Part shown: positions 441 to 15,506 of the stretch, piece by piece
How positions within the stretch are numbered: the first letter of the stretch is position 1
How the letters are laid out: each line of letters begins with the position of its first letter
Source: a virus
Taxonomy: Duplodnaviria; Heunggongvirae; Uroviricota; Caudoviricetes
DNA: 15,506 nucleotides
Virus record (IMG/VR): IMGVR_UViG_2703718798_000014
Span: 1 to 15,506 of that record
Strand: one strand, 5' to 3'
Position numbers and translations under genes: made by a program
The notes under the pieces: model-generated
Told to the model about the DNA's origin: nothing
Databases searched by the model: none
The model's input: the letters and a program-made list of their open reading frames with translations, nothing else

Positions 441-491
441 ACCAAACGACTCGGGGTGCCCTTCTGCGTGAAGGCTGAGAAATACCCGTAT
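441..491 (+). ncRNA. 5' portion of a TPP (THI-box) riboswitch aptamer, thiM-leader-like, truncated after ...GAGAAATACCCGTAT
   Basis: 441-491 (AACCAAACGACTCGGGGTGCCCTTCTGCGTGAAGGCTGAGAAATACCCGTAT) matches the E. coli thiM leader as I recall it, including the CUGAGA element. The expected continuation (CACCUGAUCUGG...GCGUAGGGAA) is absent; sequence diverges at 492. From memory, not a search. Confidence 0.6.
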
Positions 492-576
492 TTTCTCATT
501 TAGTGTTTTTTGCGGTTCGGGGGTGTTCGTGGTTGTTTGTGTATGTATTTGATATTAAATGAATTATTCTATTTTC

Positions 577-644
577 TTGTTTGTTGTTGTTCGTCGTTGT
601 TCGTAGAGCTTCAACAAAATGTGTGGTCAGTTGTGTGGTCAGTT
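577..644. repeat. Left copy of a ~75-bp imperfect direct repeat (triple TTGTT box plus tandem GTGTGGTCAGTT x2), 36 bp upstream of int
   Basis: 566-643 aligns with 15423-15497 with about 6 mismatches; tandem 12-mer GTGTGGTCAGTT at 621-632 and 633-644. Confidence 0.7.
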
Positions 645-679
645 TTTTGAGGCTGGAGGACTGAAAAGAGGATCTGATA

Positions 680-2323: not shown

Positions 2324-2518
2324 ATGCGCGAAATAAATGAAGATCGTGTAATCCGCGAAAAAGAATGCAGAGAGCTAACAGGCGTTTGCCGCACAACTCG
2401 TTACGAGATGGAAAAACAAGGCCGCTTTCCCTCCCGTATCAGTCTTGGCGGTCGTTCGGTTGGCTGGATTAAGTCTGAGGTTGTCGCCTGGGTCAAAAAC
2501 CGCGAACGCGTCAATTAA
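2324..2518 (+). CDS. alpA: AlpA-family (Xis-like, MerR-type winged helix) transcriptional regulator
   Basis: 64 aa; motif ELTGVCRTTRYEMEKQGRFPSRISLGGRSVGWIKSEVVAWV matches the AlpA pattern TG..R.T.Y....G.FP....LG.R.VGW..SE...W. Position immediately after int is typical of P4-like elements and PICIs. Confidence 0.85.
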   Translation: MREINEDRVIREKECRELTGVCRTTRYEMEKQGRFPSRISLGGRSVGWIKSEVVAWVKNRERVN

Positions 2519-2550: not shown

Positions 2551-2577
2551 TTGTTTGTACTTGTTCGCGGTTGTTCG
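2551..2577 (+). promoter_or_regulatory. Triple-box module TTGTTTGTAC-TTGTTCGCGG-TTGTTCG (10-bp register)
   Basis: Boxes begin at 2551, 2561, 2571. The same module recurs at 577-603, 15426-15452 and, in variant form, 7910-7936; a looser copy at 514-540. Followed by SD TAAGGAG (2608-2614) and ATG 2624. Confidence 0.55.
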
Positions 2578-4157: not shown

Positions 4158-5971
4158 AAAAAGCGCCAAATTTAAAACACCAGCCACGTGACAAAATGAC
4201 GGAAGTCATCATTTTTGCGGGTAGTGATGCGTGGGCACATGCGAAGCAGTGGCAGGAACAGGACGGGCGACTGGCTGGCGATAACGTGCCACCTGTCTGG
4301 CTTGGAGAGCAACAACTTGCCGAACTGGACAACCTGCAAATCGTACCGGACGGACGCTATCGCGTGCGTCTCTATCAGGCGGGGTTATTGCGTTCGGGGC
4401 TTGTTAATACCATCGGGCAGAAACTGGCAGCGGCAGGTGTCAGGGATGCTGATTATTACCCTGAAGGAATGCACAGCCAGAAACGGGAGAACTGGCGCGA
4501 ATATCTGGAACGTGAGCGGGGAGATCTGACGGAAAAGAAAAAGGTAGTTGAACTGCCTGTAAAGAAAAAAGAGCGGGTAAAAGACGATAACGCTTCATCA
4601 CTGGCGCTTAACCAGATGGGAGCAAGTCAACGCGGCGAAGTTCTCCTGGCACATTATGGCGGTGAACTGGCGATTAATGCTGACTCTGACACTGTTCACC
4701 ATTACAACGGCGTTGTATGGGAGCCAGTACAGGATAAAGAATTACAGCGAGCTATGGCACAGATTTTCATTGATGCGGAGATCAGCTATTCGCAGAACGC
4801 CATTAAATCGGCGGTCGATACCATGAAGTTAAGTTTGCCTGTAATGGGGAATACAGCCCGTAACCTGATTGGATTCAGTAACGGGGTATTTGATACCCGT
4901 ACAGGTGATTTCCGTGAACACGATAAAAATGACTGGCTGTTAATTGCCAGTGAGTTACCGTTCACTCCACCAGCAGAAGGTGAAACGCTGGCAACACATG
5001 CGCCGAATTTCTGGAAGTGGTTACGCCGTTCGGTGGCTGAGAATGACCGCAAGGCAGATCGCGTTCTGGCAGCGTTATTTATGGTGCTGGCGAACCGGTA
5101 CGACTGGCAGTTATTCATTGAGGTAACAGGTCCAGGGGGAAGTGGTAAAAGCGTGATGGCGGAGATTTGCACCATGCTGGCGGGTAAGGCCAACACAGTA
5201 TCGGCAAGCATGAAGGCGCTGGAAGATGCAAGGGAACGCGCGTTAGTGGTTGGCTTTTCGCTGATTATCATGCCGGATATGACCCGCTACGCTGGTGATG
5301 GGGCAGGAATTAAGGCCATTACAGGCGGTGACAAGGTGGCAATTGACCCGAAACACAAAGCCCCCTACTCAACGCGTATTCCGGCAGTAGTGCTGGCGGT
5401 TAACAATAACGCCATGTCATTCAGTGACCGCAGCGGGGGGATCTCGCGCCGTCGGGTGATATTCAATTTTTCGGAAGTTGTACCGGAGAACGAACGCGAT
5501 TCAATGCTGGCGGAAAAAATAGAAGGTGAGCTGGCGGTAGTGATTCGTCATCTGCTTACACGGTTTGCTGACCAGGACGAAGCCAGACGCCTTTTATATG
5601 AGCAGCAGAAATCAGAAGAAGCACTCGCGATAAAGCGTGAAGGTGATTCGCTGGTGGACTTCTGCGGCTATCTCATGGCGTCGGTAATGTGTGATGGCCT
5701 GTTAGTGGGTAATGCTGAAATTGTGCCATTCAGCCCGCGCAGGTATCTCTATCATGCCTATCTGGCTTATATGAAGGCACATGGGTTTGGTAAACCTGTA
5801 ACACTGACGCGCTTCGGTAAAGATATGCCGGGGGCAATGGCGGAATATGGCAGGGAGTATATGAAACGGAAAACGAAGCACGGTTTGCGTTCAAACGTGA
5901 CACTGACGGAGGAATCAGAAGACTGGATGCCGTCATGTGTATCGGTCACTAATGACGATAGCAAAAATTAA
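4154..5971 (+). CDS. DNA primase/helicase, P4-family (SF3 helicase-type NTPase)
   Basis: 605 aa from ATG 4154 (GGAGAG RBS 7 nt upstream; the track start 4139 is an upstream GTG). Walker A GPGGSGKS in ...FIEVTGPGGSGKSVMAEI...; Walker B-like LIIMPD. Followed directly by an iteron array of the P4 ori type. Confidence 0.85.
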   Translation: MKKAPNLKHQPRDKMTEVIIFAGSDAWAHAKQWQEQDGRLAGDNVPPVWLGEQQLAELDNLQIVPDGRYRVRLYQAGLLRSGLVNTIGQKLAAAGVRDADYYPEGMHSQKRENWREYLERERGDLTEKKKVVELPVKKKERVKDDNASSLALNQMGASQRGEVLLAHYGGELAINADSDTVHHYNGVVWEPVQDKELQRAMAQIFIDAEISYSQNAIKSAVDTMKLSLPVMGNTARNLIGFSNGVFDTRTGDFREHDKNDWLLIASELPFTPPAEGETLATHAPNFWKWLRRSVAENDRKADRVLAALFMVLANRYDWQLFIEVTGPGGSGKSVMAEICTMLAGKANTVSASMKALEDARERALVVGFSLIIMPDMTRYAGDGAGIKAITGGDKVAIDPKHKAPYSTRIPAVVLAVNNNAMSFSDRSGGISRRRVIFNFSEVVPENERDSMLAEKIEGELAVVIRHLLTRFADQDEARRLLYEQQKSEEALAIKREGDSLVDFCGYLMASVMCDGLLVGNAEIVPFSPRRYLYHAYLAYMKAHGFGKPVTLTRFGKDMPGAMAEYGREYMKRKTKHGLRSNVTLTEESEDWMPSCVSVTNDDSKN

Positions 5972-5984
5972 ACTTATGGAATAA

Positions 5985-6213
5985 CTGTTCACCACTGTTC
6001 ACCCTGTCATAAATATCTTTTATATCAGTATATTATAGGGTGAACAGTTATTTATGAACTGTTCACCAAACTATTCACTGTTCACCTTTTTGATTGTTTA
6101 TTGAGCTTCAAGGGTGAACAGTGGTGAACAGTTGGTGAATAGTTTTTGTGAAACTGTTCACCCCTTAACATTATGAATTAAAAGATAAAATATCAAAAGG
6201 TGAACAGGTGAAG
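5985..6213. repeat. Replication origin: at least 9 exact copies of the octamer core TGTTCACC / GGTGAACA in both orientations (plus degenerate copies), flanking an AT-rich segment
   Basis: Direct (CTGTTCACC) at 5985, 5995, 6059, 6078, 6154, with degenerate 6071. Inverted (GGTGAACAG) at 6039, 6113, 6123, 6199, with degenerate 6134 and 6208. AT-rich 6010-6038. Octamer matches the P4 ori/crr type I iteron as I recall it. Confidence 0.75.
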
Positions 6214-7514: not shown

Positions 7515-7538
7515 AGCCGGAGAAATCCGGCTTTTTTT
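7515..7538 (+). terminator. Rho-independent terminator (stem AGCCGGA / TCCGGCT, GAAA loop, T7 run)
   Basis: Perfect 7-bp stem 7515-7521 / 7526-7532, tetraloop GAAA, then TTTTTTT; directly after the stop of the 7237-7509 gene. Confidence 0.65.
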
Positions 7539-7868: not shown

Positions 7869-7890
7869 AGCCGGAGCAATCCGGCTTTTT
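7869..7890 (+). terminator. Rho-independent terminator (same stem AGCCGGA / TCCGGCT, GCAA loop, T5 run)
   Basis: Stem 7869-7875 / 7880-7886 identical to the 7515 terminator; T-run follows. Confidence 0.6.
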
Positions 7891-7909: not shown

Positions 7910-7936
7910 TTGTTCGTGGTTGTTCCACGTTGTTCA
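7910..7936 (+). promoter_or_regulatory. Triple-box module TTGTTCGTGG-TTGTTCCACG-TTGTTCA upstream of the head/packaging operon
   Basis: Boxes at 7910, 7920, 7930 in exact 10-bp register; 215 bp upstream of the capsid ATG; third box (TTGTTCAC) also resembles the ori iteron. Confidence 0.5.
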
Positions 7937-14786: not shown

Positions 14787-15081
14787 CTGGTTGATATTCC
14801 CGACGGACCAAAAATGGGTGGCTACATCCCTCGCTTCTGAGGACTGTTAACAAGCTGCCTGAAAGACAGTCACAAACTACGAAATTTTCGCAGTTTAATT
14901 AATGATCAGCTTAATCGCTAACCCGCTGATATTTTCGGAAACCTCAATTTGAGGAAGTCGGCGCGGTAACTCGCTGAACTTTAAGCAAAGTGCAAAATTG
15001 CGCTTGCTGAATAATCATTATGATTACGCAGATGATTAAGGAATGACCGAAGGCGGAAATTCGCCTGTGGTTAATGGGGGA

Positions 15082-15362
15082 GTTGCAGATCTGCAACTCG
15101 ACCATGAAACTACGGAAACTACCCGTAGTTTGGGTAGTAAGAGTAACACCCAGATTTTGGGTCTTACTCGTGATACCCAAATTTGGGGTATCAGTGGCAA
15201 CCATAACGACTTTCGTTACGGTTGATGCTTTTACCCCATTGGGGGAAAGGTATTACGATAATCATAACACCTACCGAACAGGTAAAGCCCACCAGCCTGA
15301 TTAACGTTTAACCGGAAAAAAATTCCGGTAGGTGGGGATCCCCATATCGGGGAACATCCACC
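15082..15362. other. Palindrome-dense non-coding segment (8 or more distinct inverted repeats), candidate structured RNA or multi-protein recognition site
   Basis: GTTGCAGATCTGCAAC (15082-15097); AAACTACGG/CCGTAGTTT (15107-15131); nested AGTAAGA...ACCCAGATTTTGGGT...TCTTACT (15136-15168); GATACCCAAATTTGGGGTATC (15172-15192); CCCCATTGGGG (15234-15244); CCGGAAAAAAATTCCGG (15312-15328); GGTGGGGATCCCCATATCGGGGAACATCCACC (15331-15362). No plausible ORF. Confidence 0.45.
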
Positions 15363-15422
15363 AGCTTCATAACGGATAGCCGGAAAATGATAACGGTTAA
15401 GCAAAACCGCCAGCAAATTTCC

Positions 15423-15497
15423 CTTTTGTTTGTTATTGTTCGTCATTGTTCGCAGAGCTTCAACGAAATGTGTGGTCAGTTGTGTGGTCAGTTTTTA
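15423..15497. repeat. Right copy of the ~75-bp imperfect direct repeat (triple TTGTT box plus tandem GTGTGGTCAGTT x2)
   Basis: 15423-15497 aligns with 566-643. Boxes at 15426, 15436, 15446; tandem 12-mer at 15469-15492. Homology ends after CAGTTTTT; the window ends 9 bp later. Confidence 0.7.
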
Positions 15498-15506
15498 GGT
15501 TTTTAA

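Follow-up and report, generated by a model that had tools for sequence, protein, structure and literature searches.

Near-identical direct repeats at the two ends of a PICI-like satellite in the thiM riboswitch as probable attachment-site arm cassettes

The 15,506-nt stretch of DNA analysed here (hereafter the window) contains a long direct repeat with one copy near each end. We regard it as quite probable that these copies serve as accessory-site cassettes, in the P' arm (attL) and the P arm (attR), of one capsid-forming PICI-type satellite, in which a doubled 12-mer is putatively read by the integrase (Int) and an array of TTGTTYG units putatively by the regulator AlpA. Underlying this proposal are the position of the copies in the arms, a separate core, the status of the sequence as a single element, variation that is constrained by the motifs and a geometry that is conserved in three att modules.

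A repeat search of the window aligned positions 577-647 with 15426-15496 over 71 nt without gaps and in direct orientation, with 67 of the 71 positions (94%) identical, a match far beyond chance. The likeness is weak to the left of 574/15423 and extends rightward to 647/15496. An earlier sequence-only reading had described an imperfect direct repeat of about 75 bp at both ends, which is hereby confirmed; the limits that it gave (566-643 and 15423-15497) were off by a few bases, but its description and the tandem GTGTGGTCAGTT x2 within the repeat hold. It had also placed the left copy just upstream of int, in agreement with the end of this copy 32 nt before the GTG of int, while the right copy ends 10 nt short of the window edge. 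Exact GTGTGGTCAGTT is present four times in the window, as one tandem pair in each arm and nowhere else; with up to two mismatches it has six matches against 0.91 expected, a number reached in none of 200 shuffles. The cassette was recovered from 76 of 5,426 complete E. coli genomes at 154 places, all chromosomal and at least two per genome, and is absent from both the phage and the plasmid collections that were searched. Given that megablast finds no more than two copies in any genome, we take the extra places in the single genome with four cassette places in sensitive blastn to be weak hits. The left cassette of the window has no 100% match among the genomes of the collection.

Both copies share the same layout, namely three TTGTTYG heptamers at 10 nt start to start, a 17-nt spacer (TAGAGCTTCAACAAAAT in the left copy and CAGAGCTTCAACGAAAT in the right copy) and the doubled 12-mer (Table 1). 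The second phased block of the P' arm, which is proximal to the core, varies between strains more than the distal block. All four differences between the two copies of the window fall outside the heptamers and 12-mers (p=0.015). Likewise, 15 copies from eight sources display 13 variable positions, which include 3 of the 45 motif positions versus 10 of the 26 spacer positions (one-sided Fisher p=0.0014), with one of the three motif changes retaining the TTGTTYG consensus; as the copies compared are related, we read this constraint as a footprint and not as a set of independent trials.

Table 1. Coordinates of the att-related and associated features of the window
Feature	Position	Strand	Basis
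att core AGAAATACCCGTAT, attL copy, inside the thiM TPP riboswitch aptamer	478..491	.	one copy in the window, two per complete relative
Core-proximal GTTYG block in 10-bp phase (GGTTCG, TGTTCG, TGTTTG), P' arm; putative second RDF (AlpA) array	510..539	+	repeat search, attP reconstruction
IHF-like site TATCAAATACATA, one mismatch to WATCAANNNNTTR, between the two phased blocks; tentative	542..554	-	attP reconstruction
Left 71-nt copy, P'-arm cassette (attL)	577..647	+	repeat search, attP reconstruction, relatives
Three TTGTTYG units (TTGTTTG, TTGTTCG, TTGTTCG; starts 577, 587, 597); putative AlpA/RDF array	577..603	+	none in 100 shuffles; TorI analogy
Doubled GTGTGGTCAGTT x2; putative Int arm-type sites (P')	621..644	+	motif search, other modules, HE-PICI analogue
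Tyrosine integrase; arm-DNA-binding domain PF13356 (aa 8-94, E=5.6e-18) and catalytic domain PF00589	680..1915	+	Pfam
AlpA-family regulator, putative recombination directionality factor; PF05930 (E=7.5e-16)	2324..2518	+	Pfam, relatives
Internal phased TTGTTYG triplet just downstream of alpA; arm motif class	2551..2577	+	motif scan, shuffles
Phased TTGTTC triplet inside the element, between the terminator at 7869-7886 and the capsid operon	7910..7936	+	motif scan, relatives
P-arm segment of the int/att module	15350..15506	+	same-cargo relatives with other integrases stop at ~15349
Right 71-nt copy, P-arm cassette (attR)	15426..15496	+	repeat search, continuation in relatives
Three 10-bp-phased TTGTTYG units, P arm (starts 15426, 15436, 15446)	15426..15452	+	none in 100 shuffles
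Doubled GTGTGGTCAGTT x2 (P arm)	15470..15493	+	motif search

Strand exchange most likely takes place outside the repeat, at a separate 14-bp core, AGAAATACCCGTAT. This core is found only once in the window, with the left copy lying 86 nt inward of it, and to its left the window has the 5' portion of the thiM TPP riboswitch, as far as ...GAGAAATACCCGTAT. Reconstruction of attP gives a dyad at the core region, AAATAC-CC-GTATTT. Five complete E. coli genomes match the final 167 nt of the window at 100% identity. In two of them (L001 and L002), 62 nt separate the right copy from AGAAATACCCGTAT, which leads into the remaining 3' half of the riboswitch and then thiM; the thiM start codon is 148 nt beyond the position of the window end. 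The relatives with an identical right end thus place a second core about 70 nt outside the window edge, and the window itself is expected to continue past 15506 with about 62 nt, AGAAATACCCGTAT, TCACCTGATCTGGATAATGCC... and thiM. Furthermore, each of six complete relatives (L003-L006, L024 and L025) has exactly two cores, two cassettes inside the cores, one int and thiM directly after the element. In genomes that lack the element, the annotated riboswitch and thiM run contiguously across the junction at 100% identity.

Since the relatives repeat AGAAATACCCGTAT past the right copy, before the 3' half of the riboswitch and thiM, the crossover block can be equated with the 14-mer at 478-491; with a core beyond the right copy, the left copy, before int, falls in the P' arm of attL and the right copy in the P arm of attR. 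The sequence-only reading was right in judging the repeat too long and too imperfect for an att core, and one of its options, the arm regions of attL and attR, proved to be the correct one. It had taken thiM sequence after the repeat as the mark of attR, and attR is the outcome in the relatives with an identical right end. It had also held the lack of an ACCCGTA-TTTTCTC junction before the right copy against a simple head-to-tail duplicate; this junction is indeed absent from there, but the argument was misdirected because the core lies after that copy and the junction past the window edge.

The insertion has several consequences for the target. The element splits the aptamer of the thiM TPP riboswitch (442-491 in the window; 4162-4280 in L001), and at attR the 5' half of the aptamer is replaced by a degenerate counterpart from the P arm of the island, with a CUAA/UUAG stem and GUAAGA in place of the conserved CUGAGA. 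The resulting hybrid aptamer scores 34.6 bits against the Rfam TPP model, for which the gathering score is 54.3. The insertion also separates thiMD from its promoter, and a scan of the P arm recovered no sigma-70-like promoter. On the other side, positions 1-438 of the window, upstream of the riboswitch, are unlike most E. coli relatives, in which rcnR is situated about 130 nt before the core; the sequence to the left of about 439 is matched only by O157-type strains and a few others.

Judged by its predicted genes, the window represents a capsid-forming PICI-like satellite of about 15 kb in the thiM TPP riboswitch. In addition to Int and AlpA, it encodes a D5-type primase/helicase, an SSB, a PerC-like protein and a head/packaging set that is complete by Pfam: HK97-type capsid, S78 protease, portal, head completion, connector, HNH, TerS and TerL. 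No tail or lysis families of Pfam were matched in the window. EcCIEDL933, a published capsid-forming PICI, has gene content as in the element of the window; an O157:H7 genome carries a cf-PICI-type element at the same thiM site, and the cargos of the thiM module probably include the family of the cf-PICI prototype. We found no full-text paper that links thiM to PICIs as an integration site. An AlpA homologue (PF05930) is encoded by every related element.

At thiM, one int with both arms is joined to at least three different capsid/replication cargos. Conversely, the same cargo as in the window is combined with another integrase in an element of PCN033, which resides in tqsA, and homology between the two ends at about 15349 of the window. 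On these sequence comparisons the repeat belongs to the int/att module and not to the cargo. The six complete relatives mentioned above further encode an extra ORF of about 260 aa (hypothetical/DUF6387) between int and alpA, along with an AlpA of 74 aa; in the window, a 400-nt non-coding spacer takes the place of this ORF, and AlpA has 64 aa and shares 69-72% identity with the AlpA of those relatives. Such int-alpA differences among relatives with the same int and arms point to exchange of the early region independently of the att module.

The PCN033 element in tqsA provided a comparison across att modules, with an Int 67% and an AlpA 66% identical to those of the window. The layout of its att module resembles that at thiM on both arms, with the doubled motif GTGTAGTCACTG x2. 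A search of genome contigs by integrase alignment returned 97 pattern matches, none of which was confirmed, while a scan of species-representative genomes with a DNA pattern for the doubled motif gave 14 hits. Seven of these 14 loci, all non-enterobacterial, were rejected as chance matches or coding tandem repeats. The scan also uncovered a third module, with an Int 53-55% identical to that of the window, in elements at the 3' end of fis in Raoultella, Kosakonia, Phytobacter, Tenebrionibacter, Pectobacterium and Symbiopectobacterium. In these fis PICIs (L011, L012, L013, L015-L018 and L020), GTGTAGTCAGTG x2 is located about 25 nt before int and a second doubled motif beside fis.

Comparison of the three modules reveals which parts of the cassette are retained. 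In all of them GTTY units occur at -43/-33/-23 from the doubled motif in the P' arm, and the doubled motifs of the two arms of one element are identical at 23-24 of 24 positions. In the 60 nt upstream of the doubled motif, inter-arm identity declines from 44/60 in thiM to 34/60 in tqsA and 19/60 in fis, the last being near random. Core and doubled motif are separated by 129, 129 and 128 nt in the P' arms of thiM, tqsA and fis, respectively, and by 65, 71 and 63 nt in the P arms; in attP the doubled motifs are 232, 233 and 234 bp apart, start to start. Given that the flank identity falls while the geometry is kept, the 71-nt repeat at thiM can be seen as the extreme of a general design that works through the two motif classes. 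From module to module Int has diverged about as much as AlpA, so co-variation of motif and protein does not assign the binders.

The pairing of proteins with motifs, like any effect on int transcription, is argued here by analogy with studied systems. The doubled 12-mer is most likely the better candidate for binding by the Int arm domain, for its exact copies are confined to the arms, its four half-sites fit an Int tetramer and it has in common with the arm sites of lambda the sequence RGTCA(C/G)T. The phased TTGTTYG units are in turn most likely the better candidate for AlpA acting as a recombination directionality factor (RDF). This proposal draws on the organisation of RDF sites as direct repeats one helical turn apart, the GTTCG sites of TorI, excision in EcCICFT073 and the internal triplets described below. 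RDFs have been reported to act also at distant promoters (PMC7498355), and overexpression of AlpA in EcCICFT073 results in int-dependent excision (PMC6092414). TorI is only a remote relative, being 27% identical to the AlpA of the window and having no PF05930 hit, and hence the resemblance to GTTCG could be coincidental.

In the proposed arrangement, the N-terminal arm-binding domain of Int would bind the doubled 12-mers, the two doubled motifs offering four half-sites, and AlpA would bind the three helical-turn-spaced TTGTTYG units cooperatively as an RDF. In the circular element the core would have one cassette on either side, both facing the same way and with 232 bp from one doubled motif to the other, start to start, and the cassettes could form the scaffold of an intasome. 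In the integrated state the left cassette would be located directly before int and could feed back on its expression. AlpA leaves the activity of Pint unchanged in EcCICFT073 (PMC6092414), which weakens the case for the left cassette as an AlpA operator for int, and a consensus scan found no sigma-70 promoter in or near the left copy.

The opposite assignment, in which the TTGTTYG triplets are the arm-type sites of Int and the doubled 12-mer is read by AlpA or another factor, appears unlikely to us. It gains from the three adjacent direct repeats with a spacing of about 10 bp that make up P'1-P'3 of lambda, and the study of HE-PICIs left open whether Int arm domains, AlpA or another protein bind the doubled motif (PMC10111431); the equal divergence of Int and AlpA does not discriminate between the two assignments. 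However, the TGTTY triplets also occupy regulatory positions away from att, behind alpA and ahead of the capsid operon, that one would expect to be bound by a transcription factor and not by an integrase, and the triplet at the capsid operon moves with the cargo under two different integrases. The RGTCA(C/G)T shared with lambda arm sites, the match of four half-sites to an Int tetramer and the GTTCG-type, phased sites of the RDF TorI all argue in the same direction, namely for Int on the 12-mers and AlpA on the triplets.

The remaining alternatives concern the nature of the repeat itself. One of them holds that it is a duplicated promoter/operator, of which the left copy controls int and the right copy drives or regulates the thiMD genes cut off by the insertion. 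The short distance from the left copy to int would suit such a role, as would the int promoters of KplE1 and P4, which lie within att and are repressed by Int and RDF (PMC2951348, PMC7498355), and thiM has indeed been parted from its promoter and the 5' half of its aptamer. Nevertheless, neither the copies nor the stretch from the right copy to thiM gave a sigma-70-like promoter in consensus scans, AlpA has no effect on Pint in EcCICFT073, and a distance to the core that is conserved among three modules, whose target genes are unrelated, speaks for a role in recombination. We consider this explanation quite improbable, though a transcriptional role could be a secondary function of the left copy. 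The duplicated regulatory cassette that the sequence-only reading had listed among its options stands in so far as the copies are sets of putative protein-binding sites, the left one close before int. The same reading had also allowed for a second related element in tandem, so that the right copy would be the int-upstream region of a neighbour. Tandem PICIs are known at other sites such as fis (PMC10111431), and the window stops soon after the right copy. Yet the five genomes identical over the last 167 nt continue into core and thiM, and past the doubled motif the right copy departs from the int leader (TTTTTAGGTTTTTAA vs TTTTTTGAGGCTGGAGG). A tandem arrangement is refuted for all relatives examined, as the six complete ones each have two cores, two cassettes and a single int, and as megablast yields at most two cassette copies per genome; for the window itself we deem it extremely improbable. 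As to a structured RNA or another transcript element at both ends, the left copy folds better than its shuffles (z = -2.98), but the right copy does not (z = -0.04) and has a different predicted fold, the minus strands are unremarkable, Rfam gives no match, and an A/G difference at position 40 disrupts the hairpin of the left copy; the probability of this reading is practically negligible. The repeat as att core or as a host-derived identity block was rejected, the empty site being devoid of the repeat and the cassette confined to the 76 element-bearing genomes.

The closest precedent for arm cassettes of this kind comes from a sister clade, the helper-embedded PICIs (HE-PICIs), whose attPs contain a doubled motif, tgTGTATTGCantgTGTATTGCa, in two co-oriented copies located 81+-2 bp upstream and 132+-2 bp downstream of the attP centre, with Int arm domains or AlpA proposed as the binders (PMC10111431). 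Like the present elements, the HE-PICIs are PICIs of Gram-negative bacteria, and their integrase and AlpA are related to those here; in both, a tandem motif with a 12-bp period is found in two co-oriented copies (both on the + strand in the window) that flank the attP centre at fixed distances. In contrast, the thiM motif has a different sequence, GTGTRGTCASTK; the HE-PICI core TGTATTGC was not encountered, and only the prefix GTGT is common with GTGTGGTCAGTT. The separation of the copies is 213 bp (81+132) in HE-PICIs versus 232-234 bp here, start to start; the thiM motif starts about 97 bp upstream and 134 bp downstream of the dyad centre, a comparison in which the reference point within the motif used in that paper may differ. 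Moreover, a phased TTGTTYG triplet is situated upstream of each doubled motif in the present elements, unlike in the HE-PICIs. The HE-PICI motif was reported to be absent from other PICIs, including those at fis (PMC10111431), whereas a sequence-variant analogue is seen here in thiM, tqsA and fis PICIs. The presence of a doubled motif in these three kinds of PICIs at a near-constant distance of about 232-234 bp is, as far as sequence comparison goes, a modest extension of that work.

The recombination module of KplE1 (CPS-53) offers a parallel for the second motif class. The sites of its RDF TorI are of the GTTCG type, with three of them in a phased block, and overlap PintS in attL (PMC2951348). 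As in the window, the arm-binding domain of its integrase IntS is of the PF13356 family, arm-type Int sites are combined with GTTCG RDF sites that include a block of three at about 10-11 bp, in an attL position directly upstream of int, and the recombination module of att arms, int and RDF is conserved across cargos (PMC2951348, PMC3509656). On the other hand, IntS is 20-35% identical to the Int of the window, TorI falls outside PF05930, with the low identity to AlpA given above, and the arm-type sites of KplE1 contain a TAAA motif as opposed to GTCA here. Additionally, TorI sites are reported on attL only, whereas phased units occur on both arms here, and the target is the argW tRNA gene instead of a riboswitch.

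The attP of lambda (P1, P2 and P'1-P'3) likewise serves a heterobivalent integrase, with arm-type sites on both arms apart from the core and with adjacent direct repeats among them. Its annotated Int arm sites share the RGTCA(C/G)T core with the 12-mers, and its X1-X1.5-X2 sites for Xis are three head-to-tail RDF units one helical turn apart. It differs in that neither of its arms is a long, near-identical copy of the other, P2 has the opposite orientation to P1, the Xis sites are restricted to one arm, the N-terminal domain of Int belongs to a Pfam family other than PF13356, and int is oriented differently relative to attP'. Arrays of 10-11 bp direct repeats at both att and distant promoters, alike in sequence and arrangement, are also known for Apl of 186, Cox of P2 and Vis of P4, which serve both as RDFs and as regulators of transcription (PMC7498355), reminiscent of the arms and internal triplets in the window; these belong to other protein families with other recognition sequences, and Apl and Cox repress, whereas AlpA is an activator in EcCICFT073. 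Taken as a whole, the repeat most likely represents ordinary, well-resolved arm-site cassettes of a heterobivalent integrase in a phage satellite, with no new system or mechanism. The analysis pins down precisely where this satellite integration module, widespread in E. coli (76/5,426 complete genomes), begins and ends and how its att sites are built. The doubled motif with its constant spacing provides a simple signature for the prediction of attP arms and element ends in this integrase clade, and the putative Int and AlpA sites would be useful in engineering PICIs as delivery vehicles.

Outside the arms, the TTGTTYG class recurs in two internal triplets (Table 1). The triplet at the capsid operon is retained in four of four elements with an HK97-type cargo, irrespective of their integrase, and strict TGTTY triplets arose in none of 100 shuffles of any locus. 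Two near-identical intrinsic terminators at 7515-7532 and 7869-7886, with the sequence AGCCGGAG[A/C]AATCCGGCT followed by a T run, bracket a 100-aa ORF, and the TGTTC triplet at 7910-7936 comes within 25 nt of the second of these, followed by the capsid operon. Such an order of terminator, triplet and capsid operon would suit activation or antitermination by AlpA. A looser GTTYN array (GAGTTCT, TGTTTC, TTGTTCC, GGTTTA and TTGTTTT) at 2016-2092 overlaps TTGAAA-18-TATTCT, the sole promoter-like site upstream of alpA, and could be related to the reported autoactivation of AlpA; in PCN033, the spacer between int and alpA contains an inverted TTGTTCG-TTGTTCC pair. A broader and more tentative possibility, to which we give well under even odds, is that AlpA reads all of these arrays and thereby couples excision, early gene control and activation or antitermination of the capsid genes, with the near-identical thiM arms being kept alike by inter-arm exchange. 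If AlpA did read all arrays, one small protein and a single array design would serve several functions of the satellite.

The bases that distinguish left from right copies (cassette positions 10, 20, 28 and 40) have a mosaic distribution among the window and the relatives L003-L006, L024 and L025. The right copies of L006, L024 and L025 bear left-type bases, and in the O157 element the two cassette copies are identical at 70 of 71 positions. This mosaic suggests that the two arms, or different elements, have undergone exchange or gene conversion with each other.

Two further regions of the window stand out by their palindromes or repeats. The non-coding block at 14900-15349, especially 15040-15240, is rich in palindromes (e.g. 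15071-15108 and the paired ACCCAGATTTTGGGT / ACCCAAATTTGGGGT) and is matched in 1,281 E. coli genomes, with 100% identity in those listed and with at least one genome that has a different integrase (PCN033) among the matches; it is part of the cargo and may be the packaging (cos) region. Dense direct and inverted GGTGAACAG(T) repeats at 5970-6207, right after the primase/helicase gene, are probably the iterons of the satellite replication origin. Within this origin region, TTGTTTATTGAGCTTCAA (6094-6111) matches TTGTTCGTAGAGCTTCAA of the cassette at 15 of 18 positions, for which a rough estimate puts chance in the order of 0.01.
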